NCBI GenBank assembly: GCA_963769975.1
Contig: CAVYNS010000003.1
Location: forward strand, 32,551-96,550
DNA: 64,000 nucleotides
Source of the DNA: an uncultured Chloroflexia bacterium
GTDB lineage: Bacteria > Chloroflexota > Dehalococcoidia > GIF9 > AB-539-J10
Direction of reading: 5' to 3'
A model generated the notes under the pieces. It saw only the letters and a list, made by a program, of their open reading frames with translations. It was not told where the DNA came from and searched no databases. Shown here piece by piece: positions 2,953 to 63,827 of the stretch (the first letter of the stretch is position 1; every line of letters begins with the position of its first letter). The translations under genes and the position numbers were made by a program.

Positions 2953-3215
2953 GGAGTGCTGCAGATATGGAAAATGTTCTTGCCTTTAACCAAAATTGGG
3001 ATGCCTGAGAGAAGTCAGGGGGCAATTGATTATTGAGAGGACAAGAAGCAAAGGGCTCACAATTATACCTCCATCTCGTTGTGGCTATTGAGGACAGGGG
3101 TTGCCACGCCCCGACAAGTCGGGACTCGCAATGACTCAGGAGAGGGCAGGGTAACACAAAGTGAAAGACTCAAAATGACAAATGGGGTTATTAAACAGTC
3201 CCGGGTAAATAGGGG

Positions 3216-3244
3216 TTGACAAAAAGTGAGCTTGTAGGCATAAT
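3216..3244 (+). promoter_or_regulatory. Sigma70-like promoter upstream of the Xer recombinase gene
   Basis: TTGACA (3216-3221), 17-nt spacer, CATAAT (3239-3244). It lies about 55 nt upstream of the GGAGG RBS and the ATG at 3301. Confidence 0.5.
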
Positions 3245-3300
3245 TTGATTGAGTATAATATTTCTTACACTCAGTTGAAATCTGTGAGGAGGTAAAGTCG

Positions 3301-4239
3301 ATGCTGCCACATGTTGATGACTTCTTATTAAATTTACAAGCCAACAAATACTCTTCCGAGACAATTTACAACTATGAACGGGATTTAAATGTTTTCAACA
3401 ATTTCCTGGATGAAAGCAACATTGAGTTTGGTAAGGTTGATAAGCGTGCTATCACCTACTACAAAGCATATTTAGTTTCGCGGGATCGCAAGACATCGAA
3501 ACTGGGAAAACGAGGTGAAAAACAGCTTGATTCCCGCTCTATAAACCGCATGCTGTCGGCGCTGAGAGCTTACCTGCGCTACTTAATTGACATTGATTAT
3601 CCTTGTCCCGTGCCGCCTGAAGCGGTCAAATTAACCAAGGCTGGGAAAAAACATCCCCAGGTGGCTGAGCTTAGGGATTTAATCAGACTGATTGAAGCGC
3701 CGAGTTCGTTAGAGTCAAATGTCAAAACGGCTTTAAGAAACCGCGTCATGCTGGAAGTGCTATTTGCCACTGGCATGCGCATCTCTGAGCTGTGCAATCT
3801 AAATCGTAGTCAAATCGATGATACCGGGCGGATTTTCATTACCGGCAAGGGTAGAAAGCAACGCTTTGTTTACTTAACTCCACGGGCTAAACAGCACCTG
3901 GATGCATATTTAGTGACTCGCCAGGATGATTGCCCTGCCCTTTTTATCCCTTATGCTGGCAGAAATGTCGCTAAATCAAGGAAGAGGATTTCCACTAATT
4001 ACCTTCAGGATAGAATTAAGAGATACCGAGAGAAATTAAGGATAAACGTCCCCACTTCAGCGCATTCCCTGAGACATGGTTTTGCTACTTATCTGGCTGA
4101 GGAAGGTGCTAATCCGGCAGCTCTTCAAATTCTTCTGGGCCATGAATCCCTGGATACCACCACTCGCTATGTTCATGCCTCCGATAAGTATGCTGAAGAG
4201 ACTCACCGCAAATACCATCCCCTGGCTAAGCCAGATTAA
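3301..4239 (+). CDS. Tyrosine site-specific recombinase, XerC/XerD family
   Basis: N-terminal SAM-like core-binding domain. Catalytic motifs ATGMRISEL, HSLRHGFATYL, LLGHESLDTTTRYVH. Confidence 0.9.
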   Translation: MLPHVDDFLLNLQANKYSSETIYNYERDLNVFNNFLDESNIEFGKVDKRAITYYKAYLVSRDRKTSKLGKRGEKQLDSRSINRMLSALRAYLRYLIDIDYPCPVPPEAVKLTKAGKKHPQVAELRDLIRLIEAPSSLESNVKTALRNRVMLEVLFATGMRISELCNLNRSQIDDTGRIFITGKGRKQRFVYLTPRAKQHLDAYLVTRQDDCPALFIPYAGRNVAKSRKRISTNYLQDRIKRYREKLRINVPTSAHSLRHGFATYLAEEGANPAALQILLGHESLDTTTRYVHASDKYAEETHRKYHPLAKPD

Positions 4240-4262: not shown

Positions 4263-5954
4263 TCAACTAACTTCAGAGGAAAGTCTGGCCTTTTCCAAGA
4301 AATACCCTACCCTATCTCTAACTGATTTATTAAGTAGGCCTTCCTTATAGGCTAGTGCATGGAAAAAAAACTGTATATGTTGCGGCACTTGCCAGAGTTT
4401 CTTCGCGGTGTAGCGGTAGCCATACCTGGCGGAACTGCCCATTTTTTCGCTGGTAATTTCCTCACTCTTGTAGCCAATATCTTTCACCAGGACACTGTCA
4501 AAGCTATTCCTTCTGGCTATATCATCTAATACACCATGGATACAGGTGCCGTGCTGTATAGCAAGCTTTTCTCTATTGGCATATTTCTTGGAGATACCCA
4601 TTTTTATAGCTAGTTGACGATGTGGATGTTTGCCCAGGCGATCTTCTTCAGAGGTCACTTTCAATTCAGGTGCCACGCTCATAGCTACATTTACCACTTC
4701 AGTATCTAAATAAGGGAAGAGCAGTTCAACACCATGCACCATGGCTATCTTATTTTCTCTATCCAGGGTCTCTATATCTGCCCTGGTGAAATCGTCCCAC
4801 ATTTTGCGGCAAAGTTCCTGACGACCATCTTTGCCTAAAACCTTGGGATACCAGTTGTACCCCCCCCATAGTTCATCAGGCCCCTGTCCAGAGAAAATCA
4901 CCCTGGTTCCATCCTGGCTAGCCATGTCTATTGCAGCATAGAGGCCGATGCCAGTTTCTACCTGCACGAAATCGCTATCCTCAATTGCTTCGATAACCTT
5001 GGGAATATACTCCTCAACCCTATCGATGTTTAATGTTTTCGTCTTATGCTTGATACCAAGTTTTCTGGCAAATGCCCGAGCAAAGTTCACATCCGGCGAA
5101 TCAGGTAAACCAGCGGTATATGCAATTAGCTCCATTCCTAAACTGGAAGCAGCATCGTGTATTAGTTTGGCTATCAGACAGCTATCCACGCCACCCGATA
5201 ACAGCACACCTACTTTACGTACATGGTTCATTGCGGCTAATCTTTTGCGCATTGCTGAGTGGAGCGCCTGTTCATATTTGTCCACAGCTTGAGCCATGCT
5301 CTTTATCTCGGTTTCCTTTTTGTGGAAAGGTAAAGCCTTCTTTACGCTAACTTTTTCATGATCAAAAACAGCGAGCATGCCAGCCCTGAGAGGTCTGACT
5401 TCACCTAAGCCTATCTTCCACAGGGGTTTCTTGTTAGAAGCGAAAGCGGAGAAGTCATTATTTTCGGCGAAGTAAAGCGGTTTTGTACCTAAAGAATTTC
5501 GTGATATTACTATTTGGTTGGTATCGCTGACTGCCAGAGCATAATCGCCATCCAGGCTAGTTAGTGCTTTCCTGACCTTTTGTTCCAGGGTGCCGGGAAG
5601 TTCTGCCAGCAAATGGACTAAGGACTCGACAGCTGTTTCATTTACCCTGTGTCGGACTTGAGAAAGCTTAGGTCCCGTGTTTTTGGAATTATACAGATAG
5701 CCATCGTATATTAAGGCTAGCTTGTCTTGATAATATGTATAAACATGTTCTGGAGGCGTTCCTTCAATAGGGAGAGATACTTTTACAAGGATATTGCCAT
5801 TAGTATCATCGAGTATGGTGCTTATGCAGTGGGGATAAGCAACAGTCGAGGGTTCATTGACCAGACAGCCGGTTTCCATCATGATGGCCAGTTTTTTCCT
5901 TAGCTCGCCTTGACTCATATTGACCTTGCTGAAGATACCACCTATCCAAGTCAT
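4263..5954 (-). CDS. Asparagine synthase (AsnB)-like amidotransferase with a non-canonical N-terminus
   Basis: PP-loop LLSGGVDS and an AsnB C-domain (FSGQGPDELWGGY). The N-terminus reads MTWIGGIF instead of MCGI. The ATG at 5954 has a GGAGGT RBS 6 nt upstream. Confidence 0.8.
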   Translation of the reverse strand: MTWIGGIFSKVNMSQGELRKKLAIMMETGCLVNEPSTVAYPHCISTILDDTNGNILVKVSLPIEGTPPEHVYTYYQDKLALIYDGYLYNSKNTGPKLSQVRHRVNETAVESLVHLLAELPGTLEQKVRKALTSLDGDYALAVSDTNQIVISRNSLGTKPLYFAENNDFSAFASNKKPLWKIGLGEVRPLRAGMLAVFDHEKVSVKKALPFHKKETEIKSMAQAVDKYEQALHSAMRKRLAAMNHVRKVGVLLSGGVDSCLIAKLIHDAASSLGMELIAYTAGLPDSPDVNFARAFARKLGIKHKTKTLNIDRVEEYIPKVIEAIEDSDFVQVETGIGLYAAIDMASQDGTRVIFSGQGPDELWGGYNWYPKVLGKDGRQELCRKMWDDFTRADIETLDRENKIAMVHGVELLFPYLDTEVVNVAMSVAPELKVTSEEDRLGKHPHRQLAIKMGISKKYANREKLAIQHGTCIHGVLDDIARRNSFDSVLVKDIGYKSEEITSEKMGSSARYGYRYTAKKLWQVPQHIQFFFHALAYKEGLLNKSVRDRVGYFLEKARLSSEVS

Positions 5955-7081: not shown

Positions 7082-7349
7082 TTATCCTATCGGCTCCTAA
7101 GAATGCTGGAATAGCTAAATAGATGCCCTATTATCCTGCGAGTCTAATATCTTAGTCAAGAACCCCACCTAATTATCGGTCTACTGTAAGAAGAATAGGG
7201 GTGCGCTTTTGTCGTGGCTGCGCCTCCCAATGTCTTGTAGCCACATGTTGGTCGGAGGCGTCTAACAGTAGTATAGAGATGATTAGTACCAGAGCTTCAC
7301 CCTTGGTTTAGACACTCTTTTCAAAAGGCTTTGACAATTCCTGCCCAGC

Positions 7350-7559
7350 TTACAATCTCCCGGCGAGCCAGAACCGGCTCTTCGTTCTCATAACGTGATC
7401 CCGGCTCCAGGTCATACACATCACACGGCAAAGCCCACATCCATGACACTTGTCTGATTCAACATCGATCCGGTCCTCTGCTGACACGAGTGCACCTGAA
7501 GGACATGTCGGCACACAGAAGGGCTCGGCGCAGTGCTTCACACAAACCGTTTTAAGCAT
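7350..7559 (-). CDS. Small 4Fe-4S ferredoxin-domain protein
   Basis: Cys motifs CAEPFCVPTCP and CHGCGLCRVMC. It lies 12 nt downstream of the GltB-like gene on the same strand. Confidence 0.7.
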   Translation of the reverse strand: MLKTVCVKHCAEPFCVPTCPSGALVSAEDRIDVESDKCHGCGLCRVMCMTWSRDHVMRTKSRFWLAGRL

Positions 7560-7571
7560 CTTCCCTCCTTT

Positions 7572-9137
7572 TTATCCCAGAATCTTGTCTACTTGTTCAG
7601 CATCAGTTTCCATTATGTATAGGATACCAGAAACATCGGTAGCTTCCCGCGTGAGAGACATTATGTCGTTCCTGTCTACATATTTAAGGGCAAATTTGCG
7701 CTCCCCAGCCATAAGTTGCCTTAAGCCAGTAGCTAACCGGTCGTAGTAGGTATAGACGCCTATTGCCGCTGGTGGTATCCTGTCGAAATCCTTCCCGTAT
7801 TTCTCTTTAAGCTGTTCCGCGGCAGTAAAAGTACGCAACAACATCTCCTGATATTTTTCGCCCCGACCGTAAGTCTCTTCCATAAGCCGTCCATGCGTCT
7901 TCCCCACCATGGCTGAGGTAAGGGTAGAGCGCCCCATGCAGACTGCTTTTACATAAGGGGCTCCCAATGCTATAGCCTTGAATACTTGGTCTTCGAGAGC
8001 AATCCCGCCAGCAATGGCGCAACTCGGAACGAATTCCCCTTTCTCATCCAGCCGTTTAAGGAATTTATAGAGAAGGCTTTCCAGATAAACTGTGGGGATG
8101 CCCCACTCATTCATCATCCGCCACGGACTCATTCCAGTGCCACCGCCGGCACCATCCACGGTGAGGAGGTCTATTCTGGCCTCCGAGGCAAATTTCACGG
8201 CCCGAGCTAAATCCACCGGTCTATAGGCTCCGGTCTTAAGGGTGACATACTTGGCACCTACCTTCCTTAGCCTTGCCACTTCTTTCAGAAATAATTCCTC
8301 ATTTACCATTCCCAGACGAGAATGGCGTTCAAACTCCTCTATCCCGCCTAATTTATGGGCTTCTTGGACGTAGGGATTCTCAGGGTCAGGGATAACAATG
8401 TATCCCCTTCGTTTAAGCTGGAGTGCTCTTTCTAAGGTCGGCAGCTTAACCTCGCCCCCGATGTCTTTGGCTCCTTGTCCCCACTTTATCTCAATGCCTT
8501 CGACGCCGAGCTTTTCTAGGGCATACTCAGGAACACCAAGGCGAGTATCTTCGACATTTGCCTGGACCAGTAGCGTTCCGTAACCTTGATACCAGTCTTG
8601 ATATACTTTTACCCTTCTTGCCAGTTCTGGAGACCTCATGATCTTGCCGTTTTTGAACTCGGCATCGGGGTCCATGCCACAAACATTTTCCCCACAGACG
8701 AGGACCGCACCACATATAGCTATGGCGATAGCTGTGCCCTCCCAATTCACCCTGGCTATTTCTGTGGAACCCAGCGCCCCTGTGAAGAAAGGAACTTTCA
8801 TCTTAATCTTCTGTCTCTTGGCACCAATTTCAGTAGATAGGTCAACGGCGGTAAAGACAGCTTTATCCGGGTCGGCTTCGATGCCCACAGCCCCAACGCA
8901 AGTCCCCTGAATGTTGAAATGAGAGAAATCCACAGGGTAATCTTTTTCTGAGCCGGCAATGACCTTGCCAAAGGGCTGAGGATATATAATCTCCCTTCCC
9001 CTGAGCGCCGACCGTCCTACTTCGCAATAGCCAGGGCAACCATCAACGCAAGTAACGCACAGTCCTGAAATAGGTGCCGGTGCTACCCTAGTTGTGGTTA
9101 CCGTGGCTGCACTGGAGTTTGGCTTGCTTAAAGTCAT
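7572..9137 (-). CDS. FMN-binding glutamate synthase family protein (GltB synthase-domain paralogue 1)
   Basis: N-terminal Cys cluster CVTCVDGCPGYCEVG. GltS FMN-domain motifs LTVDGAGGGTGMSP and IAGGIALEDQVFKAIALGA. Confidence 0.85.
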   Translation of the reverse strand: MTLSKPNSSAATVTTTRVAPAPISGLCVTCVDGCPGYCEVGRSALRGREIIYPQPFGKVIAGSEKDYPVDFSHFNIQGTCVGAVGIEADPDKAVFTAVDLSTEIGAKRQKIKMKVPFFTGALGSTEIARVNWEGTAIAIAICGAVLVCGENVCGMDPDAEFKNGKIMRSPELARRVKVYQDWYQGYGTLLVQANVEDTRLGVPEYALEKLGVEGIEIKWGQGAKDIGGEVKLPTLERALQLKRRGYIVIPDPENPYVQEAHKLGGIEEFERHSRLGMVNEELFLKEVARLRKVGAKYVTLKTGAYRPVDLARAVKFASEARIDLLTVDGAGGGTGMSPWRMMNEWGIPTVYLESLLYKFLKRLDEKGEFVPSCAIAGGIALEDQVFKAIALGAPYVKAVCMGRSTLTSAMVGKTHGRLMEETYGRGEKYQEMLLRTFTAAEQLKEKYGKDFDRIPPAAIGVYTYYDRLATGLRQLMAGERKFALKYVDRNDIMSLTREATDVSGILYIMETDAEQVDKILG

Positions 9138-9149
9138 CTGTTACCTCCT

Positions 9150-9920
9150 TCACATTTTTACTGGTATTCCCTTTTCTTTCAGGTACCTTTTTGCCTCAGG
9201 TATAGATATTTCGCCAAAGTGGAAGATAGAGGCAGCCAAAACTGCTGAGGCCTTGCCAATTGTCACCGCTTCATAAAGATGCTCCAGTTTTCCTGCCCCG
9301 CCGGAGGCAGTGACTGGAATTTTGACGGCTTCAGCCACGGCTTTAGTCATCTCCAGGTCATATCCTTTCTTAGTGCCATCGGCATCTTTGCTGGTCAAGA
9401 GAATCTCACCAGCCCCCAGTTTCTCCACCTTCTTTGCCCATTCAACAATATCTATCCCTGTGGATTCGCTACCACTTTTGACTACCACTTCTAATCGAGG
9501 CAGGCTACTTCCAGGTGGATTTTTTCGCCCATCAATGGCAACAACAAGCTTCTGCTTACCAAATTTTCTCGAAGCCTCTTTTATAAGCTCAGGATTTCTT
9601 ACAGCCGCGGTATTGACTGAGACTTTATCTACGCCAAGGGCGAATAAGGCTTTCATATCCTCGGTATCCCTAATCCCGCCACCTACGGCAAAGGGGATGG
9701 TAACCTTTTTCGCTACCTTTTTGACCCATTCCAGCCTTGTTCCTCTGCTCTCCACAGTAGCGAAGATATCAAGGAAGACAAGCTCATCTGCCCCCTCTTG
9801 ACAATACGCCTGCGCCGCTTCCACAGGGTCACGTGCGTCCCGCAGGTTGATGAACCTCACTCCCTTTACCACCCTCCCTTCTTTCACATCCAGACAGGGT
9901 ATAATTCTTATCTCTTGCAT
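9150..9920 (-). CDS. hisF: Imidazole glycerol phosphate synthase cyclase subunit HisF, paralogue 1
   Basis: IIPCLDV (Asp11), VVAIDGRK (Asp130), LTSKDADGTKKGYD, ASGGAG, AASIFHFGE. One nt separates the upstream nrpR stop from this ATG. Confidence 0.85.
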   Translation of the reverse strand: MQEIRIIPCLDVKEGRVVKGVRFINLRDARDPVEAAQAYCQEGADELVFLDIFATVESRGTRLEWVKKVAKKVTIPFAVGGGIRDTEDMKALFALGVDKVSVNTAAVRNPELIKEASRKFGKQKLVVAIDGRKNPPGSSLPRLEVVVKSGSESTGIDIVEWAKKVEKLGAGEILLTSKDADGTKKGYDLEMTKAVAEAVKIPVTASGGAGKLEHLYEAVTIGKASAVLAASIFHFGEISIPEAKRYLKEKGIPVKM

Positions 9921-9921
9921 G

Positions 9922-10440
9922 TTATATCTCCTTGAATTCTATTAAGCGCTGATATTCCATAACGGTGCTCATGGCATGATTGTCCACTTCAATGCCGGAT
10001 TCAACAGCAGCAGCTACGGGATTAAGCCCCCCTGTAAGTATCATCCCGACCTTATTTAGTTCCACGGGAACTGCACACAGAGGCTTGCTTACCTCGCCCA
10101 TCATAAGCAATCCATCCAGATTAGATGCTTTCAATCTGGCAATGACCTTTTCTGCTGTGGTTTGGCATATAGCGGGTATTTCTCGAAAATTGGCTAAAAT
10201 CCTTCCTTGCCCTTCTCTAGCTACCTGCCCGACGCTAGTCATCCTGCTCGTGATGTATATCTCTGAAGGGTCTAAGGATGAGCCCGAATACTGAATAAGC
10301 TCCACGAATCGCAAGGGCTTGTGGTTCTTGATTTGAAGGATGCCACCAAACTTGGAATCCATGGGGACACCAGCTTTAAGCAAGGCACCATTAATTAAGA
10401 CGCTGCAGATAGTAGCGAGACCTATTTTACCTTGGGGCAC
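9922..10440 (-). CDS. nrpR: NrpR-type regulator, C-terminal part of the DUF128 domain (3' fragment of a split gene)
   Basis: DUF128-like sequence (GGILQIKNHKPLRFVELIQYSGSSLDPSEIY...). It starts 2 nt after the stop of the HTH-containing ORF. Adding one G to the G6 tract at 10447-10452 fuses the two frames. Confidence 0.7.
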   Translation of the reverse strand: MPQGKIGLATICSVLINGALLKAGVPMDSKFGGILQIKNHKPLRFVELIQYSGSSLDPSEIYITSRMTSVGQVAREGQGRILANFREIPAICQTTAEKVIARLKASNLDGLLMMGEVSKPLCAVPVELNKVGMILTGGLNPVAAAVESGIEVDNHAMSTVMEYQRLIEFKEI

Positions 10441-18033: not shown

Positions 18034-18096
18034 GTCGCCCTGAGCGAAGCAAAGGGGCTCAGAGATTCTTTGGTCGCTACGCTCCCTCAGAATGAC
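18034..18096. repeat. Short palindromic intergenic repeat (GTC[AG]..CTGAG family), two inverted units
   Basis: GTCGCCCTGAGCGAAGCAAAGGGGCTCAGAG faces the reverse complement of GTCATTCTGAGGGAGCGTAGCGACCAAAGAATCTC. Confidence 0.6.
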
Positions 18097-18113
18097 ATTA
18101 TATATTATGAGGT

Positions 18114-21174: not shown

Positions 21175-22377
21175 TCAGAGATTGCCACGTCGCTTGTGCT
21201 CCTCGCAATGACGGGCAGGCTCAAGTGGCTTCTCCAAACTGCCGACAATAGGCTCACCACCCATGGGAATCCAGGCTCTGTCAAGGTCCGGGCAAACAAG
21301 ACGCATGGCTGATTCTTCTGAAGAAAGGTAAAGCACCGACCCTTTCACTCCTACGGTGAGGGGACGTAACTTTATCCTATCAGTAAGGCCAATCATCTCC
21401 CCTTGATGAGCAATGATCACAGTGAAAGGCCCGTTGAGCAAAAGGCTGCCATACACTTGGCGCAAAGTTCGGAAGATTCTTTGCTCCTCTGGGGAACAGC
21501 GCTCTATCTGACTCCATAGAGGAGGTGCTAATACCTTGGCGGCTATCTCTACCGGAAGGCCATGCCTGCGCATTAAAAGGTCAACGGCATAGGCTACTAC
21601 CTCGGTGTCGGTCTGCATAGTACAGTTGTAGCCAAACTGCTCCAAATACCGTCGATTTATGCCGTAGGAAGAGATTTCACCATTATGAACCACTGTCCAG
21701 TCCAAGATATTAAAGGGATGTGCTCCGCCCCACCAGCCAGGAGTGTTGGTGGGAAATCTGCCATGGGCTGTCCAGAGGTAACCTTCATACTGCTCCAGGC
21801 AAAAATATTCTGCTATCTCTTCGGGATAACCCACTCCCTTGAACACTCCCATATTCTTGCCGCTGGAAAAGACGAAGGCATCTTCTATCTGAGTATTGAT
21901 TTCCATGACCCTATCTACGACATACTCGTCTTCTGACTGGCTGTTAGTTCTCTCGTTTTGCACTTCAAGGAAATAACGCCACACCAGGGGAGGGTTCACT
22001 ATAGCCGGAATTGGCTTGGTGGGCACCTCTTCGGCATGAGGCACATGAAACTTTTGCTCGAGGAAATCTTCTACTCTGGCTTGCCCCTCGCGACTCAAAT
22101 ACATTATGTGGAAAGCATAACAGTTGGCATATTTGGGGAATAACCCATAAATAGCAAATCCACCACCCAGACCGTTACCCCGAACATGCATGTTGGCGAT
22201 AGCTTCTATTACCTCCTTACCTGAGAACCGCCTCCCCGCAGTATCCATCATTCCAAAGAGGGAACAGGCATCCATTACCTTATCATCGTGATAAAAGTTG
22301 TTTATCCTGCTTAACTCTTTCAATGGCTTAACCTCCTCAATGAGATAGTTATTCGCCAATAAAGGTTTCCTCTTCAC
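21175..22377 (-). CDS. Class II (Ntn) glutamine amidotransferase, archaeal-type GltB domain 1
   Basis: The candidate nucleophile is the Cys in MDACSLFGMMD. GNGLGGGF and HGRFPTNTPG motifs are present. A likelier TTG start at 22323 lies 8 nt after GAGGAGG, leaving a propeptide before the Cys. Confidence 0.85.
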   Translation of the reverse strand: MKRKPLLANNYLIEEVKPLKELSRINNFYHDDKVMDACSLFGMMDTAGRRFSGKEVIEAIANMHVRGNGLGGGFAIYGLFPKYANCYAFHIMYLSREGQARVEDFLEQKFHVPHAEEVPTKPIPAIVNPPLVWRYFLEVQNERTNSQSEDEYVVDRVMEINTQIEDAFVFSSGKNMGVFKGVGYPEEIAEYFCLEQYEGYLWTAHGRFPTNTPGWWGGAHPFNILDWTVVHNGEISSYGINRRYLEQFGYNCTMQTDTEVVAYAVDLLMRRHGLPVEIAAKVLAPPLWSQIERCSPEEQRIFRTLRQVYGSLLLNGPFTVIIAHQGEMIGLTDRIKLRPLTVGVKGSVLYLSSEESAMRLVCPDLDRAWIPMGGEPIVGSLEKPLEPARHCEEHKRRGNL

Positions 22378-34625: not shown

Positions 34626-34790
34626 ATTCGCCTTCTCTTAATCCCTCTCGTCATAAGGTAGGAAGCCCATAATAATAAAAAATCCCTGTGCCAGTGAACA
34701 CAGGGTTACCTTCGGCCTCGGCAGGCAAATTATTTAAACCTTCCAGGTACCTGCTGTCACTGGCGCGGGTTCATTATAACACAAGAAATC
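34626..34790 (-). promoter_or_regulatory. rplJ promoter and L10-leader-like attenuator
   Basis: On the minus strand: TTTACT, 16-nt spacer, TGtTATAAT (-10 at 34768-34763). A terminator-like hairpin CCCTGTG/CACAGGG (34684-34705) is followed by ATTTTTTATTATT. An upstream GCCAGTGA (34754-34747) is complementary to TCACTGGC inside the hairpin, giving an antiterminator option. Confidence 0.5.
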
Positions 34791-37657: not shown

Positions 37658-37812
37658 ATATTATTATTTTATGCCTGGGATGCTGGTTTAACAAACTTGT
37701 TTATGGCCGCTGAGATGTTATCCTCTCCCTTGTTTTTCCCTTGGATAACCCCTTGGTCAAGGCTTGAGTCTCATCCCTGCCCTTTGCCGCATATAAGTCC
37801 GGAAAAAATTTT

Positions 37813-38210
37813 GGGCGAGTAAACCTGTAAGCCGAGTTCTGTCCTCCATATGGAGTGGTGACCATCCATCTAGCCCTGATGTTACCATCAAGGTCAAGCG
37901 ACCAACCCGAGGGCCTCGGCCGGGCACCTTAAACTGACCCCGGAGTCTTGAGACTTTGGGGTAGTTGAGCCCTCTTATTCGGTCTTGCTCCAGGTGGGGT
38001 TTGTCCAGCCAACTAGTCTCCTGGTTGCTGGTGAGCTCTTACCTCACCATTTCACCCTTACCCGCACTGGCTAAGCCAGCCGCTGGTGGTGTGTTTCTGT
38101 GGCACTTTCCGTAGGGTCTCCCCTCCTGGGTGTTGCCCAGCACCCTGCCCGGTGGAGCTCGGACTTTCCTCCCCGATTGTATTGGGGCAGTCACCCGGTT
38201 TACTCGTCCA
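37813..38210 (-). ncRNA. rnpB: RNase P RNA, bacterial type A
   Basis: The reverse complement contains GGGGAGGAAAGTCCGAGCTCCACCGGGCAGGGTGC, GGTAAGGGTGAAATGGTGAGGTAAGAGCTCACC, and ACAGAACTCGGCTTACAGG. The P1 stem pairs GGACGAGTAAACC with GGTTTACTCGCCC. Confidence 0.9.
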
Positions 38211-39411: not shown

Positions 39412-39503
39412 GGAGGGGTGACCGAGTGGCTTATGGTGACGGTCTTGAAAACCGTTTTCGCTTTTTTTAGCGAACGTGGGTTCGAATCCCACCCCCTCCG
39501 CCA
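39412..39503 (+). tRNA. tRNA-Ser (anticodon UGA) with encoded CCA
   Basis: Acceptor stem GGAGGGG/CCCCTCC. Anticodon stem ACGGT/ACCGT with loop CTTGAAA. Long variable arm TTCGC..GCGAA. T-arm GTGGG-TTCGAAT-CCCAC. Discriminator G followed by CCA. Confidence 0.9.
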
Positions 39504-41601: not shown

Positions 41602-43173
41602 GTGATTAAGAATCGCTATCCGTTAATTGAAGAAGTCTTTACTCCCTTGACTGCTCCTGAGCTGTTTGAGCTAATCAAGGACAGACCTTATAGCTTTTTT
41701 TTAGACAGCGGCATGGATCTTCAAAGGCTGGGGAGATATTCTTTTCTGGGCAGTGAGCCTTTTCTGGTGACGAGCAGTCGAGGCTCTGAAATCACCTTGA
41801 TTCGGGGACAGGAGCACAAAGTGCAGCATGGTAACCCTTTTGATACTATAGGCAAGCTGCTGGAGATATATAAGTTAGACCATTGTCCAGCACCCGTATC
41901 CTTCCTGGGTGGAGCGGTTGGCTATTTTAGCTATGATCTGTGCCACTTCATCGAACGCCTGCCATCCACAGCTATAGACGACCTTAAACTCCCTGAGAGT
42001 TATTTTGCCTTCTATGATACTATCGTGGCCTTCGATCACTTGGAAGGGAAAGCCTACCTTGTTGCCACAGGCTTCCCTGAGATGGAGGAAGGGCAGCGGT
42101 TAAGGCGAGCCAGGATGAGACTGGAGGAGATGAAGGATTGGCTTTGTCCTAGCCATTCAGTCATTGCGGTGAACCGAAGTCTTGAGCAAAGTGAAGGAGA
42201 AGCGAAGCAATCCCGCGATAGAGGTTGCGGAGCTTGTTCCGAGCGTGAGCGAGGAATCTCGTCGAGTTTGCTTCAGCTTCGCCTCGCAACCGCTACTGCT
42301 CCTCGCAATGACAGGCAAGACAAAGAAATTTTGCTTAAGTCCAATTTTACTCCCGAGGAATATATGAAAGCTGTGAATAGAGTGCGGGAGTATATCGCCG
42401 CTGGCGATGTCTTTCAAGTCAATCTTTCTCAAAGGTTTGAGGCTGATTTAAAAATTCCGCCCTATGAGCTTTATAAGCGACTGAGGATAATTAATCCTGC
42501 TCCCTTTGCCAGCTATCTCAATTTCTCGGGCGTAGCCATTGTCAGCGCCTCTCCCGAAAGATTCCTCAACGTCCAAAGCGACCTAGTAGAGACGCGACCG
42601 ATAAAGGGCACGAGACCACGAGGCAGAGACCCTGTTAAAGATGAGCGCTTGGCTCATGAGTTGATCCACAGCGCTAAAGACCGTGCAGAAAACATGATGA
42701 TTGTTGATTTGGAGAGGAATGATTTAGGACGAGTTTGCCGCTATGGCACAGTAAAGGTTACCGAATTAGCTATCCTGGAGACTTTTCCCACCGTATTTCA
42801 TCTCACCTCTACCATCGTGGGCAGGCTACGCCGAGGCAAGAGCAACATTGACCTGCTGAAGGCTACTTTCCCGGGCGGCTCCATTACCGGCGCTCCTAAG
42901 GTGCGGGCTATGGAGATTATTGATGAACTGGAGCCGACCAGGAGGAGTGTCTATACCGGCTCTATAGGCTATTTGGGCTTCAACGAGGACATGGATATCA
43001 GCATCGTTATCCGCACTTTCTTAATCAAGGAAGGCAAAGCTTATTTTCAGGTGGGTGGTGGAATTATTTACGACTCTGACCCGGAAGCGGAATATGTGGA
43101 AACCTTGGACAAAGCCAGGGCTCTGATTCAAGCTTTACAGTTAGCGCCGGAAGTGGTTGTAACCACAAAATAA
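41602..43173 (+). CDS. pabB: Chorismate-binding enzyme, aminodeoxychorismate synthase component I (PabB/TrpE family), carrying an in-frame repeat insertion
   Basis: PYSFFLDSG, GDVFQVNLSQRF, SASPERF, PIKGTRPRG, DRAENMMIVDL, FPGGSITGAPK, GGGIIYDS. Confidence 0.85.
   Translation: MIKNRYPLIEEVFTPLTAPELFELIKDRPYSFFLDSGMDLQRLGRYSFLGSEPFLVTSSRGSEITLIRGQEHKVQHGNPFDTIGKLLEIYKLDHCPAPVSFLGGAVGYFSYDLCHFIERLPSTAIDDLKLPESYFAFYDTIVAFDHLEGKAYLVATGFPEMEEGQRLRRARMRLEEMKDWLCPSHSVIAVNRSLEQSEGEAKQSRDRGCGACSERERGISSSLLQLRLATATAPRNDRQDKEILLKSNFTPEEYMKAVNRVREYIAAGDVFQVNLSQRFEADLKIPPYELYKRLRIINPAPFASYLNFSGVAIVSASPERFLNVQSDLVETRPIKGTRPRGRDPVKDERLAHELIHSAKDRAENMMIVDLERNDLGRVCRYGTVKVTELAILETFPTVFHLTSTIVGRLRRGKSNIDLLKATFPGGSITGAPKVRAMEIIDELEPTRRSVYTGSIGYLGFNEDMDISIVIRTFLIKEGKAYFQVGGGIIYDSDPEAEYVETLDKARALIQALQLAPEVVVTTK
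42160..42312. mobile_element. 153-bp palindromic (MITE/RPE-like) element inserted in frame in pabB
   Basis: 9-bp perfect terminal inverted repeats GTCATTGCG (42160-42168) and CGCAATGAC (42304-42312). Both arms carry the GCGAAGCAATC core seen in intergenic copies. Length is 51 codons and the element starts at codon position 1. Confidence 0.7.
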
Positions 43174-50812: not shown

Positions 50813-50846
50813 GTCTTTGTGAGGAGCGTAGCGACGAAGCAATCTC
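50813..50846. repeat. Single unit of the GTCATT..GAG repeat family
   Basis: GTCTTTGTGAGGAGCGTAGCGACGAAGCAATCTC, compared with GTCATTGCGAGGAGCAGTAGCG (reverse arm of the pabB element). Confidence 0.5.
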
Positions 50847-58554: not shown

Positions 58555-58700
58555 GTCATTGCCAACCCTTCTCCTCTTGTCATTCTGAGCCTTTTCATTT
58601 TGTCATTGCGAGCGAAGCGTGGCAATCTCATCAGAGCCTTCGTAGAGAGTCTCTTATGTGCTCCCGCAAATTGAGAGGGGACAAGCCTCTCCCCTACGAA
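58555..58700. repeat. Cluster of GTCATT..GAG repeat units plus a GGACAAGCC-loop hairpin
   Basis: Three direct GTCATT units ~23 bp apart (58555, 58578, 58602). The third reads GTCATTGCGAGCGAAGCGTGGCAATCTC. Hairpin GAGAGG-GGACAAG-CCTCTC lies at 58673-58691. Confidence 0.6.
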
Positions 58701-59105: not shown

Positions 59106-62100
59106 ATGAAAAGACGAATATTTGGTATCCTGTGTTTGCTGGTGCTGCTGGTGATAGCAGCGCAAACGGCCATACCAGTCCTGGCTGCCCCACCGCATAT
59201 GTACGAAAACTATAACGTCAATGATGACTCAAGTAATAATGTATATGGCGTCAACTGGTATGCCCAAACCTTCACCCCTTCCGTAGCCCATACCATTACC
59301 AGCGTTAAGCTCAAGCTCTACAGGGTCGGCACCACGCCAGGGAATGTCACCGTGAGTATCAGAGCTACTAGCGGCGGACATCCCATTCTCCCCGATTTGT
59401 GCTCGGGCACTATTAACGGCAATTCCCTGACAACCAACACCAGCGGTAACTGGTATGAGATAACCTTTACCAGCGGTTATAACCTTTCCGCCAGCACCAT
59501 GTACGCCATAGTGGTAAGGGCGACAGGCGGTACTTTTTCAAACTACATTGGCTGGCGACGGAGTACTTCAGCGGGTTATGCTGGTGGATGTCGGGAGGAC
59601 AGTGGTACCAGCGGTGCAGACGGAACCTGGACTTCACACACCACCAGGGACATGATGTTTGAGGAGTGGGGCGACCGGGCGCCGGTGCTTAGTGCTATCG
59701 GCAACAAGTCAGTTAACGAGAGCCAGCTCCTGACCTTCAACATCTCGGCTACTGACCCCGATGGCGACTCCTTGACTTATTCAGCCTCCAATCTGCCCTC
59801 AGGAGCCAGCTTTAATGCCACGACCCAAACCTTCTCCTGGACACCGAGCTACACTCAGGCCGGGAACTACACCGGTGTCCATTTTGAGGTTACTGACGGG
59901 AATCTGACTGCCTCTGAGAACATCACCATCACGGTAATCAATGTCAACCGACCGCCAGTGGCTAATAACCAAACTGGTCTGTCGGTTGGTGCCTGTAAGA
60001 CCTTGACTGTAACTCTCAACGGGACCGACCCTGATGGCGATCCCTTGACCTATAAGATTTCCACATTGCCAGCCCACGGCGATTTATACGATGGCACAGG
60101 GACTGGCGGAACCCACATCACATCAGTTAACTATACTGTCACGGATGTAAATCATAAAGTGACCTATCAGCCCAACGGCAGCTACAGCGGTGCTGATAGC
60201 TTTGGCTTTAAGGTCAATGACGGCGCGCTTGACAGCGCTGAAGCTACCATCTCTATTGCAGTCACCAAGCCCACAGCCTCCGCCTCCTCTAACTCACCGG
60301 TCTGTGAGGGAAGCACTATTACCTTAACTGGAGGCCCTGGTGGGATGACGAGCTACAACTGGACCGGGCCGAATGGCTTTAGCAACAGCTTGCAGAGCCC
60401 GACCGTCACCACCAATGCCACCTTCGCAATGGCCGGGAATTATACTTTGACAGTGACTGACAGCAATGGCTGCACTGCCAGCAACACCACCAGTGTGGTG
60501 GTCAACGCCAGGCCCGCAGCCACAGCCTCCTCTAACTCCCCGGTCTGTGAGGGAAGCACTATTACCTTAACTGGAGGTCCTGGTGGAATGACTAGCTACA
60601 ACTGGACCGGGCCGAATGGCTTTAGCAGCAACTCGCAGAGCCCGACCGTCACCACCAATGCCACCTTGGCAATGGCCGGTACCTATACTTTGACAATAAC
60701 CAACAGTAATGGCTGCACTGCCAGCAACACCACCAGTGTGGTGGTCAACGCCAGGCCCGCAGCCACAGCCTCCTCTAACTCCCCGGTCTGTGAGGGAAGC
60801 ACTATTACCTTAACTGGAGGTCCTGGTGGAATGACTAGCTACAACTGGACCGGGCCGAATGGCTTTAGCAGCAACTCGCAGAGCCCGACCGTCACCACCA
60901 ATGCCACCTTGGCAATGGCCGGTACCTATACTTTGACAATAACCAACAGTAATGGCTGCACTGCCAGCAACACCACCAGTGTGGTGGTCAACGCCAGGCC
61001 CACCTGCAGCATAAGCGCTGACCCCGGCATCACGGTCTGTGCCGGCAACAATGTCACCCTGACCGAGGATGGTGGCAATGCTACAAGCTGGCTGTGGACT
61101 ACCGCTGAGACCACAAAATCCATAACGGTAAGCGACAGCGGCACCTATGGCGTCACCATAACCGACGCCAATGGCTGCCAGAGCTACTGTGAGATAGAGA
61201 TAACGGTAAATGCGTTACCTGATTGCCACATAAGTGCCGACCCGGGCATCACGGTCTGTGCCGGCAACAATGTCACCCTGACCGAGGATGGTGGCAATGC
61301 TACAAGCTGGCTGTGGACTACCGCTGAGACCACAAAATCCATAACGGTAAGCACCAGCGGCACCTACGGAGTCACCGTAACCGACAGCAATGGCTGTCAG
61401 AGCTACTGCGAGATAAAGATAACGGTAAATCCGTTACCTGCTTGCAGCATAAGCGCTGACCCGGGCACCACGGTCTGTGCGGGCACGGATGTCACCCTGA
61501 ACGAGACTGGCGGCGATGCCGAAAGCTGGCTGTGGACTACCGCTGAGACCACAAAATCCATAACGGTAAGCACTACCGGCACCTATGGCGTCACCATAAC
61601 CGACGCCAATGGCTGTACTAGCTACTGTGAGATAGAGATAACGGTAAATGCGTTACCTGATTGCCACATAAGTGCCGACCCGGGCATCACGGTCTGTGCC
61701 GGCAACAATGTCACCCTGACCGAGGATGGTGGCAATGCTACAAGCTGGCTGTGGACTACCGCTGAGACCACAAAATCCATAACGGTAAGCGACAGCGGCA
61801 CCTATGGCGTCACCATAACCGACGCCAATGGCTGTACTAGCTACTGTGAGATAGAGATAACGGTAAATGCGTTACCTGCCTGCCACATAAGTGCCGACCC
61901 GGGCATCAAGGTCTGTGCCGGCAACAATGTCACCCTGAACGAGACTGGCGGCGATGCCGAAAGCTGGCTGTGGACTACCGCTGAGACCACACAATCCATA
62001 ACGGTAAGCACCAGCGGCACCTACGGAGTCACCGTAACCGACAGCAATGGCTGTCAGAGCTACTGTGAGATAAAGATAACGGTAAATCCGTTACCTGCTT

Positions 62101-63827
62101 GCAGCATAAGCGCTGACCCGGGCACCACGGTCTGTGCGGGCACGGATGTCACCCTGAACGAGACTGGCGGCGATGCCGAAAGCTGGCTGTGGACTACCGC
62201 TGAGACCACACAATCCATAACGGTAAGCACCAGCGGCACCTACGGAGTCACCGTAACCGACAGCAATGGCTGTCAGAGCTACTGTGAGATAAAGATAACG
62301 GTAAATCCGTTACCTGCCTGCAGCATAAGCGCTGACCCGGGCACCACGGTCTGTGCGGGCACGGATGTCACCCTGAACGAGACTGGCGGCGATGCCGAAA
62401 GCTGGCTGTGGACTACCGCTGAGACCACACAATCCATAACGGTAAGCACCAGCGGCACCTACGGAGTCACCGTAACCGACAGCAATGGCTGTCAGAGCTA
62501 CTGTGAGATAAAGATAACGGTAAATCCGTTACCTGCCTGCAGCATAAGCGCTGACCCGGGCACCACGGTCTGTGCGGGCACGGATGTCACCCTGAACGAG
62601 ACTGGCGGCGATGCCGAAAGCTGGCTGTGGACTACCGCTGAGACCACACAATCCATAACGGTAAGCACCAGCGGCACCTACGGAGTCACCGTAACCGACA
62701 GCAATGGCTGTCAGAGCTACTGTGAGATAAAGATAACGGTAAATCCGTTACCTGCTTGCAGCATAAGCGCTGACCCGGGCACCACGGTCTGTGCGGGCAC
62801 GGATGTCACCCTGAACGAGACTGGCGGCGATGCCGAAAGCTGGCTGTGGACTACCGCTGAGACTACACAATCCATAACGGTAAGCACCAGCGGCACCTAC
62901 GGAGTCACCGTAACCGACAGCAATGGCTGTCAGAGCTACTGTGAGATAAAGATAACGGTAAATCCGTTACCTGCCTGCAGCATAAGCGCTGACCCGGGCA
63001 CCACGGTCTGTGCGGGCACGGATGTCACCCTGAACGAGACTGGCGGCGATGCCGAAAGCTGGCTGTGGACTACCGCTGAGACTACACAATCCATAACGGT
63101 AAGCACCAGCGGCACCTACGGAGTCACCGTAACCGACAGCAATGGCTGTCAGAGCTACTGTGAGATAAAGATAACGGTAAATCCGTTACCTGCCTGCAGC
63201 ATAAGCGCTGACCCGGGCACCACGGTCTGTGCGGGCACGGATGTCACCCTGAACGAGACTGGCGGCGATGCCGAAAGCTGGCTGTGGACTACCGCTGAGA
63301 CTACACAATCCATAACGGTAAGCACCAGCGGCACCTACGGAGTCACCGTAACCGACAGCAATGGCTGTCAGAGCTACTGCGAAATAAAGATAACTGTTTT
63401 GCCTCTACCCGAGGCTGCCTTCCATGCCAGCGACACCAACCCCTATGCTACCGTGGAAATTAACTTCTACGATGACTCCACCGGCACCTACGATTCTTGG
63501 TTCTGGGACTTTGGCGACGGCAGTAACAGCACTGCTCAGAACCCATCCCACGCCTACTCCAGTGCTGGCAACTACACCGTCAGCCTAACTATCAGCGACA
63601 GCTGCGGCAACGACACCGAGACAAAGATTGACTACATAAACGTATGGCCGCATGACATCCTTGACTACTACCGCGGATTGCACGCACCTTACGACAAGGT
63701 TGATACACTGGATCTTCTTACCGCCGCCGATGACTGGAGTGCATATGTGGCGCCACCTGGCTTCGACCAGCCAATCACCACTCTCCAATTACTGCAGCTC
63801 GCTGACGAGTGGATGGCTGGCGGTTGA
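59106..63827 (+). CDS. Large secreted repetitive surface/adhesin-like protein (signal peptide, beta-sandwich N-domain, cadherin/Ig-like domains, 3 + 11 tandem Cys-containing modules, PKD domain, C-terminal duplicated helix motif)
   Basis: Signal peptide MKRRIFGILCLLVLLVIAAQTAIPVLAAP with a GGGAGGAG RBS. A He_PIG/cadherin-like segment reads ATDPDGDSLTYSASNLPSGASFN. A PKD segment reads WDFGDGSNSTAQNPSHAYSSAGNYTVSL. Confidence 0.9.
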   Translation: MKRRIFGILCLLVLLVIAAQTAIPVLAAPPHMYENYNVNDDSSNNVYGVNWYAQTFTPSVAHTITSVKLKLYRVGTTPGNVTVSIRATSGGHPILPDLCSGTINGNSLTTNTSGNWYEITFTSGYNLSASTMYAIVVRATGGTFSNYIGWRRSTSAGYAGGCREDSGTSGADGTWTSHTTRDMMFEEWGDRAPVLSAIGNKSVNESQLLTFNISATDPDGDSLTYSASNLPSGASFNATTQTFSWTPSYTQAGNYTGVHFEVTDGNLTASENITITVINVNRPPVANNQTGLSVGACKTLTVTLNGTDPDGDPLTYKISTLPAHGDLYDGTGTGGTHITSVNYTVTDVNHKVTYQPNGSYSGADSFGFKVNDGALDSAEATISIAVTKPTASASSNSPVCEGSTITLTGGPGGMTSYNWTGPNGFSNSLQSPTVTTNATFAMAGNYTLTVTDSNGCTASNTTSVVVNARPAATASSNSPVCEGSTITLTGGPGGMTSYNWTGPNGFSSNSQSPTVTTNATLAMAGTYTLTITNSNGCTASNTTSVVVNARPAATASSNSPVCEGSTITLTGGPGGMTSYNWTGPNGFSSNSQSPTVTTNATLAMAGTYTLTITNSNGCTASNTTSVVVNARPTCSISADPGITVCAGNNVTLTEDGGNATSWLWTTAETTKSITVSDSGTYGVTITDANGCQSYCEIEITVNALPDCHISADPGITVCAGNNVTLTEDGGNATSWLWTTAETTKSITVSTSGTYGVTVTDSNGCQSYCEIKITVNPLPACSISADPGTTVCAGTDVTLNETGGDAESWLWTTAETTKSITVSTTGTYGVTITDANGCTSYCEIEITVNALPDCHISADPGITVCAGNNVTLTEDGGNATSWLWTTAETTKSITVSDSGTYGVTITDANGCTSYCEIEITVNALPACHISADPGIKVCAGNNVTLNETGGDAESWLWTTAETTQSITVSTSGTYGVTVTDSNGCQSYCEIKITVNPLPACSISADPGTTVCAGTDVTLNETGGDAESWLWTTAETTQSITVSTSGTYGVTVTDSNGCQSYCEIKITVNPLPACSISADPGTTVCAGTDVTLNETGGDAESWLWTTAETTQSITVSTSGTYGVTVTDSNGCQSYCEIKITVNPLPACSISADPGTTVCAGTDVTLNETGGDAESWLWTTAETTQSITVSTSGTYGVTVTDSNGCQSYCEIKITVNPLPACSISADPGTTVCAGTDVTLNETGGDAESWLWTTAETTQSITVSTSGTYGVTVTDSNGCQSYCEIKITVNPLPACSISADPGTTVCAGTDVTLNETGGDAESWLWTTAETTQSITVSTSGTYGVTVTDSNGCQSYCEIKITVNPLPACSISADPGTTVCAGTDVTLNETGGDAESWLWTTAETTQSITVSTSGTYGVTVTDSNGCQSYCEIKITVLPLPEAAFHASDTNPYATVEINFYDDSTGTYDSWFWDFGDGSNSTAQNPSHAYSSAGNYTVSLTISDSCGNDTETKIDYINVWPHDILDYYRGLHAPYDKVDTLDLLTAADDWSAYVAPPGFDQPITTLQLLQLADEWMAGG
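60282..61004 (+). repeat. Three tandem 243-bp coding repeats (81-aa Ig-like modules)
   Basis: Unit starts at 60282, 60525 and 60768. Units 2 and 3 appear nucleotide-identical. The module reads SSNSPVCEGSTITLTGGPGGMTSYNWTGPNGF...NGCTASNTTSVVVNARP. Confidence 0.9.
61005..63413 (+). repeat. Eleven tandem 219-bp coding repeats (73-aa four-Cys modules)
   Basis: Unit starts every 219 bp: 61005, 61224, 61443, 61662, 61881, 62100, 62319, 62538, 62757, 62976, 63195. The last six differ only at a few silent sites. Confidence 0.95.

Follow-up and report, generated by a model that had tools for sequence, protein, structure and literature searches.

The window analysed here is a stretch of 64,000 nucleotides (64 kb) from contig CAVYNS010000003.1 of an uncultured Chloroflexia bacterium, which GTDB places among the Dehalococcoidia. 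It contains pabB, the gene for component I of aminodeoxychorismate synthase, and inside pabB lies a 153-bp palindromic segment that is in frame with the gene. An earlier note, made from the sequence alone, had described this segment as selfish, mobile DNA resembling the Rickettsia palindromic elements (RPEs). The segment is a member of a dispersed palindromic repeat family, whose copies were found beyond chance expectation in the window and in many genomes.

The pabB gene and its composite in-frame segment

The host open reading frame (ORF) of 523 aa carries the Pfam domains Anth_synt_I_N (residues 17-153) and Chorismate_bind (residues 251-504) and matched the NCBIfam model TIGR00553 (pabB) with 362 bits, relative to a cut-off of 328. 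The gene, the element and the parts of the element are as follows.

41602-43173, plus strand: pabB (aminodeoxychorismate synthase component I), 523 aa, the gene in which the element lies; assigned from the ORF, Pfam, NCBIfam, PDB homologues and orthologues
42160-42312, plus strand: composite palindromic element, 153 bp or 51 codons, encoding VIAVNRSLEQSEGEAKQSRDRGCGACSERERGISSSLLQLRLATATAPRND; in frame, no stop, and collinear module by module with positions 5004-5224 of contig L117 (introduced below)
42160-42168, plus strand: left outer head GTCATTGCG, preceded by A, in contrast to the (C)GTCATTGCGAG head of the family
42169-42198, plus strand: module n1, GTGAACCGAAGTCTTGAGCAAAGTGAAGGA, net +27 bp relative to the simple doublet; from allele comparison and the L117 match
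42199-42213, plus strand: inner part of the left arm, GAAGCGAAGCAATCC, corresponding to the conserved family block GAAGCAATCC; profile match at 42200-42213
42214-42222, plus strand: central spacer (loop) of the outer doublet, CGCGATAGA; from allele and L117 comparison
42223-42228, plus strand: inner part of the right arm, GGTTGC, counterpart of the family GGATTGC; from allele, family and L117 comparison
42229-42290, plus strand: module n2, 62 nt where the simple form has TTCGT, net +57 bp; from allele and L117 comparison
42291-42312, plus strand: right outer arm, CGCTACTGCTC followed by CTCGCAATGAC, with the minus-strand head TGTCATTGCGAG; profile match at 42312-42292

Frame arithmetic confirmed that the element starts at codon position 1, since (42160-41602) mod 3 = 0, and that 51 codons follow without a stop; the insert peptide given in the earlier note is the translation of 42160-42312. 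The 9-bp inverted termini are likewise exact (GTCATTGCG at 42160-42168 and CGCAATGAC at 42304-42312). The claim that both arms carry a GCGAAGCAATC core did not hold: the core was exact only at 42202, in the left arm, the right arm lacks its reverse complement, and a copy with one mismatch lies at 50834. Matches to GCGAAGCAATC were within chance, as two or more were found in 36 of 100 shuffles of the window, and exact 9-bp inverted pairs spaced 20-200 nt apart numbered 29 in the window compared to 29-57 in the shuffles. Because both features are within chance, the 9-bp termini and the 11-nt core were dropped as evidence. The fold z-score of the 153-bp element was a modest -2.4.

The segment had been taken for one simple element and proved to be a composite, made up of an outer 69-bp doublet with modules that add 27 bp and 57 bp. 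Module n1 is present in the 504-aa and 523-aa alleles of PabB and missing from the 495-aa alleles. Module n2 is an inverted doublet itself, with GTTCCGAGCGTGAGCGAGGAATC at 42236-42258, a spacer, and GTTTGCTTCAGCTTCGCCTCGCAAC at 42266-42290. An element collinear with the 153 bp of the window over about 150 nt was found at positions 5004-5224 of L117, a contig of a Desulfobacteraceae metagenome-assembled genome (MAG; CAYTDY010000146.1). There the order is head, n1-like module (after GTCATTGCG at 5012), GCGAAGCAATC, spacer, GAGATTGC, n2 left arm, spacer, n2 right arm and ...TCCTCGCAATGAC, and the spacers are longer than those in the window. This copy is outside pabB; it coincides with the 5' end of an ORF as annotated and probably precedes that ORF. 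Since the same module order occurs in a Desulfobacteraceae genome, the composite was not assembled solely inside pabB. In the region 4990-5234 of the same contig, the flanks CGTAAAAAG... and ...CTTTTTACG prolong the palindrome.

The location of the segment in the interdomain linker of PabB, also proposed in the earlier note, was supported by structures and orthologues. Bacillus subtilis PabB (7QU9, 7PI1) aligned to residues 40-155 and 234-517 of the query, leaving about 50 extra residues in the latter. Measured from anchor to anchor, the linker is 122 aa in the window and 77-82 aa in metagenomic orthologues at 54-72% identity. These outgroup linkers show no repeat similarity; the longer exceptions are L168 (154 aa), L171 (87 aa) and L201 (87 aa). 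The gene sucD lies directly upstream of pabB in the window and in most of the orthologues checked at 62-72% identity, and in such syntenic outgroups the linker measures 78-82 aa and the site is free of repeats. Orthologues closer to the window do carry segments at this place, and those segments are derived from repeats.

A palindromic repeat family dispersed across phyla

The 11-mer CTCGCAATGAC occurs four times exactly in the 64 kb (3125, 21202, 42302 and 58602). With up to one mismatch there were five matches relative to 0.82 expected, a number reached in 0 of 100 shuffles. A profile for the window was built only from copies in other phyla, and this foreign-copy profile matched both arms of the pabB element, further units in the window and also copies in contigs of related organisms. 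The units elsewhere in the window are listed below.

58602-58628, plus strand: intergenic single unit GTCATTGCGAGCGAAGCGTGGCAATCT, profile E 1.8e-6; degenerate heads precede it at 58555 and 58579
21179-21212, minus strand: single unit GTCATTGCGAGGAGCACAAGCGACGTGGCAATC, profile E 1e-5
50813-50845, plus strand: intergenic degenerate unit GTCTTTGTGAGGAGCGTAGCGACGAAGCAATCT, profile match at 50821-50845, E 0.038
3101-3135, minus strand: intergenic unit with a longer variable insert, GTCATTGCGAGTCCCGACTTGTCGGGGCGTGGCAAC, profile E 0.095
18034-18097, no strand assigned: intergenic palindromic mosaic of a sister type, a GTCATTCTGAG...AGAATC unit with a CTGAGC/GCTCAG hairpin, directly 3' of a gene

The window copies are mostly single units and mostly intergenic, often a few bases from the 3' ends of genes. 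A GATase_2-family ORF (21175-22377, minus strand) takes its final codons (HCEEHKRRGNL) and its stop from the unit at 21179-21212, so that the tail of this ORF is, after the pabB insert, the second coding segment of the window to derive from a repeat. The C-terminus of the 400-aa product reads ...ARHCEEHKRRGNL*.

The family unit can be written (C)GTC-ATTGC-GAG-[short variable part]-GAA-GCAAT-CC(A). A doublet, about 60-80 bp long, consists of two such units, inverted and with a short spacer between them; longer forms bear modules in the variable slots of the arms. The architecture of the doublet is (C)GTCATTGCGAG, variable part, GAAGCAATCC(AG), spacer, (CT)GGATTGCTTC, a different variable part and CTCGCAATGAC(G). 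We scanned 596 Gb of sequence, one genome per GTDB species, with the pattern GTCATTGCGAG-N30-60-CTCGCAATGAC, which returns only dimers. At least 120 doublets with exact termini were recovered from about 10 phyla, where an estimated 1-2 would be expected by chance. They were 59-82 bp long, with a paired outer stem of 11-12 bp and an inner stem of about 13 bp, an arrangement of two inverted units and a spacer that resembles the REPINs (doublets of repetitive extragenic palindromic, or REP, sequences). The internal blocks GAAGCAATCC and GGATTGCTTC were 95-98% conserved although they lie outside the search pattern. The hosts included Alpha-, Beta-, Gamma- and Deltaproteobacteria, Bacteroidota, Chloroflexota, Planctomycetota, Cyanobacteria, Nitrospirota, phyla of the candidate phyla radiation (CPR), Rickettsiales and Legionellales. 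Among the hosts named were Bradyrhizobium, sphingomonads, Rhodospirillales, Comamonadaceae, gammaproteobacteria, Desulfobacterales, Candidatus Tisiphia and Legionellales, and also Bacteroidota, Anaerolineae, Dehalococcoidia, Pirellulales, Microcoleus, Nitrospirota, Berkelbacteria, Saccharibacteria and Woesebacteria. The same pattern was present in 92 viral contigs of IMG/VR. On one of these predicted viral contigs (L265, 3300047994_000331), positions 3000-3450 hold three tandem 156-bp mosaics, a cluster resembling bacterial interspersed mosaic elements, each mosaic consisting of a CATCCTTCGAGG...CTTCAGGATG palindrome joined to a CGTCATTGCGAG doublet.

Among 123 doublets, the base 5' of GTCATTGCGAG was C in 81 and T in 30, mirrored by G or A after the right end. 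The heads of the pabB copy are TGTC in the right arm and AGTC in the left, and AGTC is not an allowed variant of CGTC. The three bases that follow GCAAT in matched arms of 121 doublets were C (115), C (76) or T (25), and A (70) or C (24); tail bases are complementary between the arms of a doublet, and the tails of the pabB copy are CCC and CTC. Of 239 individual units, 113 are 27 nt long and enclose 12 nt in their 5-bp stem, and 42 are 33 nt long and enclose 18 nt in a stem of the same length. A candidate feature that we rejected was a conserved loop, GAGCGNAGCGAA, with co-varying 5-bp stems. Perfect ATTGC/GCAAT pairs surrounded the loop motif in 109 of 147 matches, and in the window copies also, and 14 further stems were near-perfect, mostly one-base variants. 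The covariation idea is unsupported because the uniformity of the stems reflects how the loci were ascertained. The sequence GCGNAGC may form the exceptionally stable DNA mini-hairpin with a GNA triloop, which is for now a lead, as calculations with the standard energy model did not support it.

In-frame copies were found in two other genes. In a gammaproteobacterial MAG (L032, 4466-4543) a doublet is embedded in the part of guaA that encodes the GATase domain, and in an alphaproteobacterial MAG (L110, 672-747) another interrupts the sequence for the catalytic domain in a GluQRS-like tRNA-synt_1c gene. Doublets have a mean of 3.0 of six frames open, relative to 2.2 in shuffles, and about half of in-phase insertions would thus be free of stops. 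A further open frame through a doublet, in Bradyrhizobium (L081), was set aside as a spurious-looking frame of high-GC DNA rather than a gene.

The closest described kind is the superfamily of CGTC-tagged REPs (Di Nocera, De Gregorio and Rocco 2013, BMC Genomics 14:522; PMC3733652), and the element, which differs in stem and loop geometry, is classed here as a variant of that kind and not as a member of a named family. The superfamily includes RPE-6 (CGTC-1) and RPE-4 (CGTC-4) of Rickettsia conorii and dRS3 of Neisseria. Its members are described as having a CGTC head (with TGTC and CCTC variants), A-T at the first two stem positions, a stem of 8-9 bp, a loop of 4-5 nt and an unpaired 3-nt CCA tail, for example CGTC-ATTCCCGC-GAAA-GCGGGAAT-CCA, and atypical loops are noted in Bradyrhizobium CGTC-1. 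They occur as single units and mostly inverted dimers, with variable spacers, that can fold into a larger stem-loop, and they lie mostly just 3' of genes with no linked transposase. In-frame intragenic CGTC and GTAG REPs encode 8-10 aa as single units, 20-30 aa as dimers and 43-82 aa as clusters. The CGTC repeats are reported there from 5 phyla, Chloroflexi not being among them. The family described here shares with them the CGTC/TGTC head, the ATT...AAT start of the stem, a tail close to CCA, the occurrence as single units and inverted dimers, copies at gene 3' ends, in-frame intragenic copies and the lack of any known linked transposase. It differs from the stem-loop definition in its 5-bp stem around 12-18 nt, and it extends to about 10 phyla including Chloroflexota and CPR. 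The peptides VIASEAKQS..., ...APRND and HCEE...RRGNL are absent from the intragenic list of that article, and composite forms bearing modules are not among the features its available text describes.

RPEs of the RPE-1 type (Ogata et al. 2000, 2002, as summarised in PMC10969869 and PMC3733652) are palindromes of about 100-150 bp that are in frame and free of stops in unrelated housekeeping genes; their peptides are translated and are believed to sit in tolerant regions. The window copy is similar in its size of 153 bp and in the presence of in-frame, stop-free coding copies alongside intergenic ones. Unlike RPE-1, it has a free-living Chloroflexota host, its family is pan-bacterial and its site is multi-allelic, and the insert peptides showed no profile similarity to RPEs in a peptide-level comparison with NCBIfam and Pfam models. 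REPINs (Bertels and Rainey 2011; PMC3337134) are REP doublets with GTAG heads that are mobilised by REP-associated tyrosine transposases (RAYTs), whose genes are flanked by REPs. The likeness here lies in short inverted repeats around a spacer that form a long hairpin, in singles that look like remnants of doublets, and in a dispersed, mostly intergenic distribution. The head, however, is CGTC and not GTAG, no Y1 transposase was seen in 8-kb flanks (for CGTC repeats, no association with one is known; PMC3733652), and the family recurs across phyla whereas the RAYT-REPIN system is lineage-specific and vertically inherited. The RPE-like reading of the earlier note, a dispersed palindromic repeat in frame in the PabB linker with intergenic copies in the window, was upheld, and the element behaves like an RPE or an intragenic REP. 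Of the two outcomes which that note had named as fatal to its reading, homologous 51-aa segments free of repeat similarity in orthologues and a want of related copies beyond chance, neither was observed when checked. The statement that such insertions are otherwise rarely reported was too strong, as in-frame intragenic REPs have been catalogued in many bacteria (PMC3733652 and PMC10969869).

Searches for the element in general collections returned no assignment. No Rfam family matched it at either the gathering or the E-value threshold, the insert peptide and three-frame translations of the family had no NCBIfam or Pfam match at E up to 10, and literature searches with DNA and peptide strings of the element gave unrelated primer matches or nothing.

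Alleles and substitution pattern at the linker

The 120 closest homologues, some of them named as Dehalococcoidia PabB, are 81-93% identical to the window protein. In all 120 the gene is intact and the linker variants differ by multiples of three. Repeat-derived sequence is present at the site in nearly all of them, and 4 of the 121 aligned sequences (the window and these homologues) fall outside the linker classes. At least seven length variants, all in frame and free of stops, occur in more than 100 assemblies, and an assembly artefact is unlikely given that the assemblies are independent. The alleles are as follows.

493-496 aa: simple 69-bp doublet, SVIASEAKQSRDRDCFVATAPRND
504 aa: doublet with n1, net +27 bp
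512-514 aa: doublet with n2, net +57 bp
523 aa: doublet with n1 and n2 (the window)
479-480 aa: short form, VIAVSRSPEQ only
491-493 aa: ancestral linker kept, with a different palindrome, CCCTCTCCCTYGAAGGGAGAG (type B)
More distant orthologues: anchor-to-anchor linkers of 99 and 154 residues, the latter holding several repeat types

The idea of a recent private insertion was thereby replaced: the site is old and polymorphic across the whole clade. It is also multi-allelic and switches fast. The linker class was shared with the nearest neighbour, as judged from the rest of the protein, in 55 of 121 sequences (random expectation 32.5). Module n2 was carried by 8 of the 121, the window and seven of the homologues, and none of the eight had a nearest neighbour that carries n2. 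Proteins P0001 and P0008, for example, are 97.8% identical outside the linker, yet differ in n2. Where a module is absent, other sequence takes its place, AGCG (4 nt) for 31 nt and TTCGT (5 nt) for 62 nt; this substitution suggests recombinational cassette exchange and not simple insertion or slippage.

The 154-aa linker belongs to a 69%-identical pabB orthologue (L168, 484-2145, contig Ga0209121_10029350) and contains CHSEGAEAL... and LSGEGQREG... repeat types, which shows that the same linker site was invaded independently. The palindrome of the type B alleles represents a second family, CCCTCTCCCTYGAAGGGAGAG(GG), which is in frame in the pabB linker of the 491-493-aa alleles and has copies at L002 5592, L008 10584-10606, L154 4155-4177, L168 2788-2810, L178 4500-4522 and L180 3177-3199. 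At least one of these, in L178, is just 3' of pabB and terminator-like in appearance.

The substitution pattern of the insert was determined from pairwise comparisons of 20 sequences that share the doublet, over 23 shared element codons. Divergence at codon positions 1, 2 and 3 was 0.208, 0.148 and 0.175 in the element compared to 0.114, 0.060 and 0.299 in the remainder of the gene. For the element, the ratio of position 3 to the sum of positions 1 and 2 was 0.49, below all 382 other 23-codon windows of the gene (minimum 0.86). The insert is without codon periodicity and hence evolves as a nucleotide sequence, not as a protein: amino-acid-changing positions are relaxed and nominally synonymous positions are unusually conserved. 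Constraint at the nucleotide level would fit the conserved synonymous sites, and homogenisation and recent exchange would fit them too. Within the stems we found one compensatory double change (L140 and L141, with GTG on the left and CAC on the right), one or two changes compatible with wobble pairing and several disruptive ones, which argue only weakly for selection on stem pairing.

Origin and maintenance of the in-frame copy

We conclude that the segment is most likely a copy of a REP/RPE-like palindromic family that is now part of the pabB coding sequence and was later remodelled by cassette exchange. On this account, a doublet would have taken the place of some of the linker, a weakly conserved stretch that joins the N-terminal domain to the chorismate-binding core, in an ancestor of this Dehalococcoidia clade. 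The copy may have survived because its length was a multiple of three, its frame held no stop and the linker was tolerant. Having survived in this form, it would add a hydrophilic loop, 23 to 51 residues long, to the translated protein. Later remodelling would consist of swaps of the simple arm for the n1 arm and of the simple arm for the n2 arm, and a likely route for such swaps is homologous recombination, either between strains or with other copies in the genome. The insert would be tolerated rather than functional, recombination would be the switch, and the family would be mobile.

Several results weigh against this account or parts of it. Third-position divergence in the element is the lowest of all 23-codon windows in the gene, and because third positions are more conserved there than in any other window, tolerated junk alone is not a sufficient description. 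Translation of the insert is something we infer. When the 23-aa doublet is taken out of the simple allele, the remaining linker falls 9-10 aa short of those of the outgroups, so the insertion was not a clean one. An AlphaFold2 model built with 40 close orthologues was unusable (mean predicted local distance difference test score 32.7, predicted template modelling score 0.24) and gave no support for surface exposure. The unit does not form a classic REP hairpin, because single units fold no better than shuffles: DNA fold z-scores were about 0 for five unit variants compared to -5.5 for a classic CGTC-1 unit. The epithets selfish and mobile in the earlier note are likewise interpretation, as neither a transposase, nor a target-site duplication, nor a transposition event or fresh insertion was seen. 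No direct repeats flank the 123 doublets, whose flanking bases (C...G) instead prolong the palindrome. By the measure of miniature inverted-repeat transposable elements, inverted termini are present, target-site duplications were not seen in the 123 doublets and no parent insertion sequence was found. In an all-versus-all comparison of ORFs at 120 loci no gene recurred beside the copies, in flanks that reached up to 8 kb and not whole genomes, which makes this weak evidence on transposase association; the neighbours were generic (ABC transporters, LysR, short-chain dehydrogenases/reductases and response regulators). The multi-copy viral contigs L272 and L265 contained no linked transposase.

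A different explanation for the conserved third positions is that the intragenic copy is kept for its form as nucleic acid, whether as a hairpin in DNA or mRNA or as a site for protein binding, the peptide being a by-product. Such a copy could act in mRNA stability, in translational pausing between the PabB domains, or through nucleoid or replication proteins. The third-position divergence of 0.175 relative to 0.299, the lowest of any window, and the missing codon periodicity speak for it, and the blocks GAAGCGAAGCAATC and CTCCTCGCAATGAC are the least variable, the outer stem shows the compensatory change in L140 and L141, and the termini of the family are invariant across about 10 phyla. We nevertheless regard it as unlikely. 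Stem substitutions in pabB are mostly uncompensated (L139, L160, L200), close relatives can do without whole modules or even the entire A-type element (479-, 480- and 492-aa alleles), homogenisation or recent exchange explains the low third-position divergence equally well, and the element has no Rfam match and a fold z of only -2.4.

Still less probable, in our estimate, is a series of nested transpositions in place, first of the 69-bp doublet, then of n1 and then of n2, with the element serving as a landing pad for its own family. All four combinations (neither module, n1 only, n2 only and both) do occur at the site, n2 is a small inverted doublet, and the site attracts repeats, as the multi-repeat 154-aa linker of L168 and the type B palindrome alleles indicate. 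The same module order and slots in a Desulfobacteraceae genome outside pabB, however, imply that the composite pre-exists as a form of the family. The forms differ by substitution (TTCGT for 62 nt, AGCG for 31 nt), and since n2 carriers are scattered among near-identical sequences free of n2, eight identical independent insertions would be required, which is implausible.

Removal of the element from the mRNA, or its bypass by the ribosome, such that PabB is made without the insert, has the non-coding substitution pattern as the sole point in its favour and is very improbable: the seven or more variants in over 100 assemblies keep the frame and avoid stops, which a removed segment would not need to do, and no Rfam intron or ribozyme matched. 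An ordinary fast-evolving, low-complexity linker with coincidental palindromy and repeat similarity accords with the chance-level 9-bp termini and GCGAAGCAATC core and with the variability of this linker in all PabB and TrpE proteins, but is already refuted by the profile from foreign phyla that matches both arms, the four exact 11-mers in 64 kb, and the collinearity with L117 over about 150 nt; the simple allele, a canonical doublet with blocks identical to those of more than 120 copies elsewhere, also speaks against it.

In-frame palindromic repeats are a documented route by which bacterial proteins gain loops, and this route is now extended to Chloroflexota. In-frame palindromic insertion itself is already documented; what is new here is the Chloroflexota lineage, a pan-phylum family with modular long forms, a fast-switching multi-allelic linker and a non-coding substitution pattern within a segment that would be translated. 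The linker provides a natural series of at least seven in-frame alleles built from modules, which switch between genes that are 95-98% identical elsewhere and could serve to examine insert tolerance, exchange of palindromic repeats and conservation of synonymous sites. An element of about 70 bp with near-identical termini in about 10 phyla also raises the question of what spreads or maintains CGTC-type repeats. One conjecture, which we put forward with considerable doubt, is that (C)GTCATTGCGAG...GAAGCAATCC marks a pan-bacterial system of DNA elements spread or maintained by a conserved protein or host process acting on single-stranded or cruciform DNA, with intragenic copies held by nucleotide-level selection or continual templated exchange; its basis is the near-invariance of termini and inner blocks in about 10 phyla and viral contigs, the modular long forms common to Desulfobacteraceae and Dehalococcoidia, and the lack of a linked transposase. 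If this were true, intragenic copies such as that in pabB would be programmed hypervariable cassettes in proteins and not decaying junk.

Other features of the region were noted in passing. In a 692-kb contig of a close relative (L001), a 957-aa MmeI-like restriction-modification gene (7131-10004; domains N6_Mtase, MmeI_Mtase and Eco57I) lies between sucD and pabB, which are adjacent in the window. Housekeeping RNAs of the window are a class A RNase P RNA (37812-38206, minus strand), tRNA-Ser(TGA) (39412-39503, plus strand) and an L10 leader (34668-34781, minus strand), and synteny with related contigs is conserved. A large ORF (59106-63827, plus strand, 1573 aa) contains, at 60265-63494, eleven tandem 219-bp copies, 70-93% identical to the reference copy, and also three copies of a 243-bp unit; these presumably encode repeated domains of 73 aa and 81 aa in a large protein.

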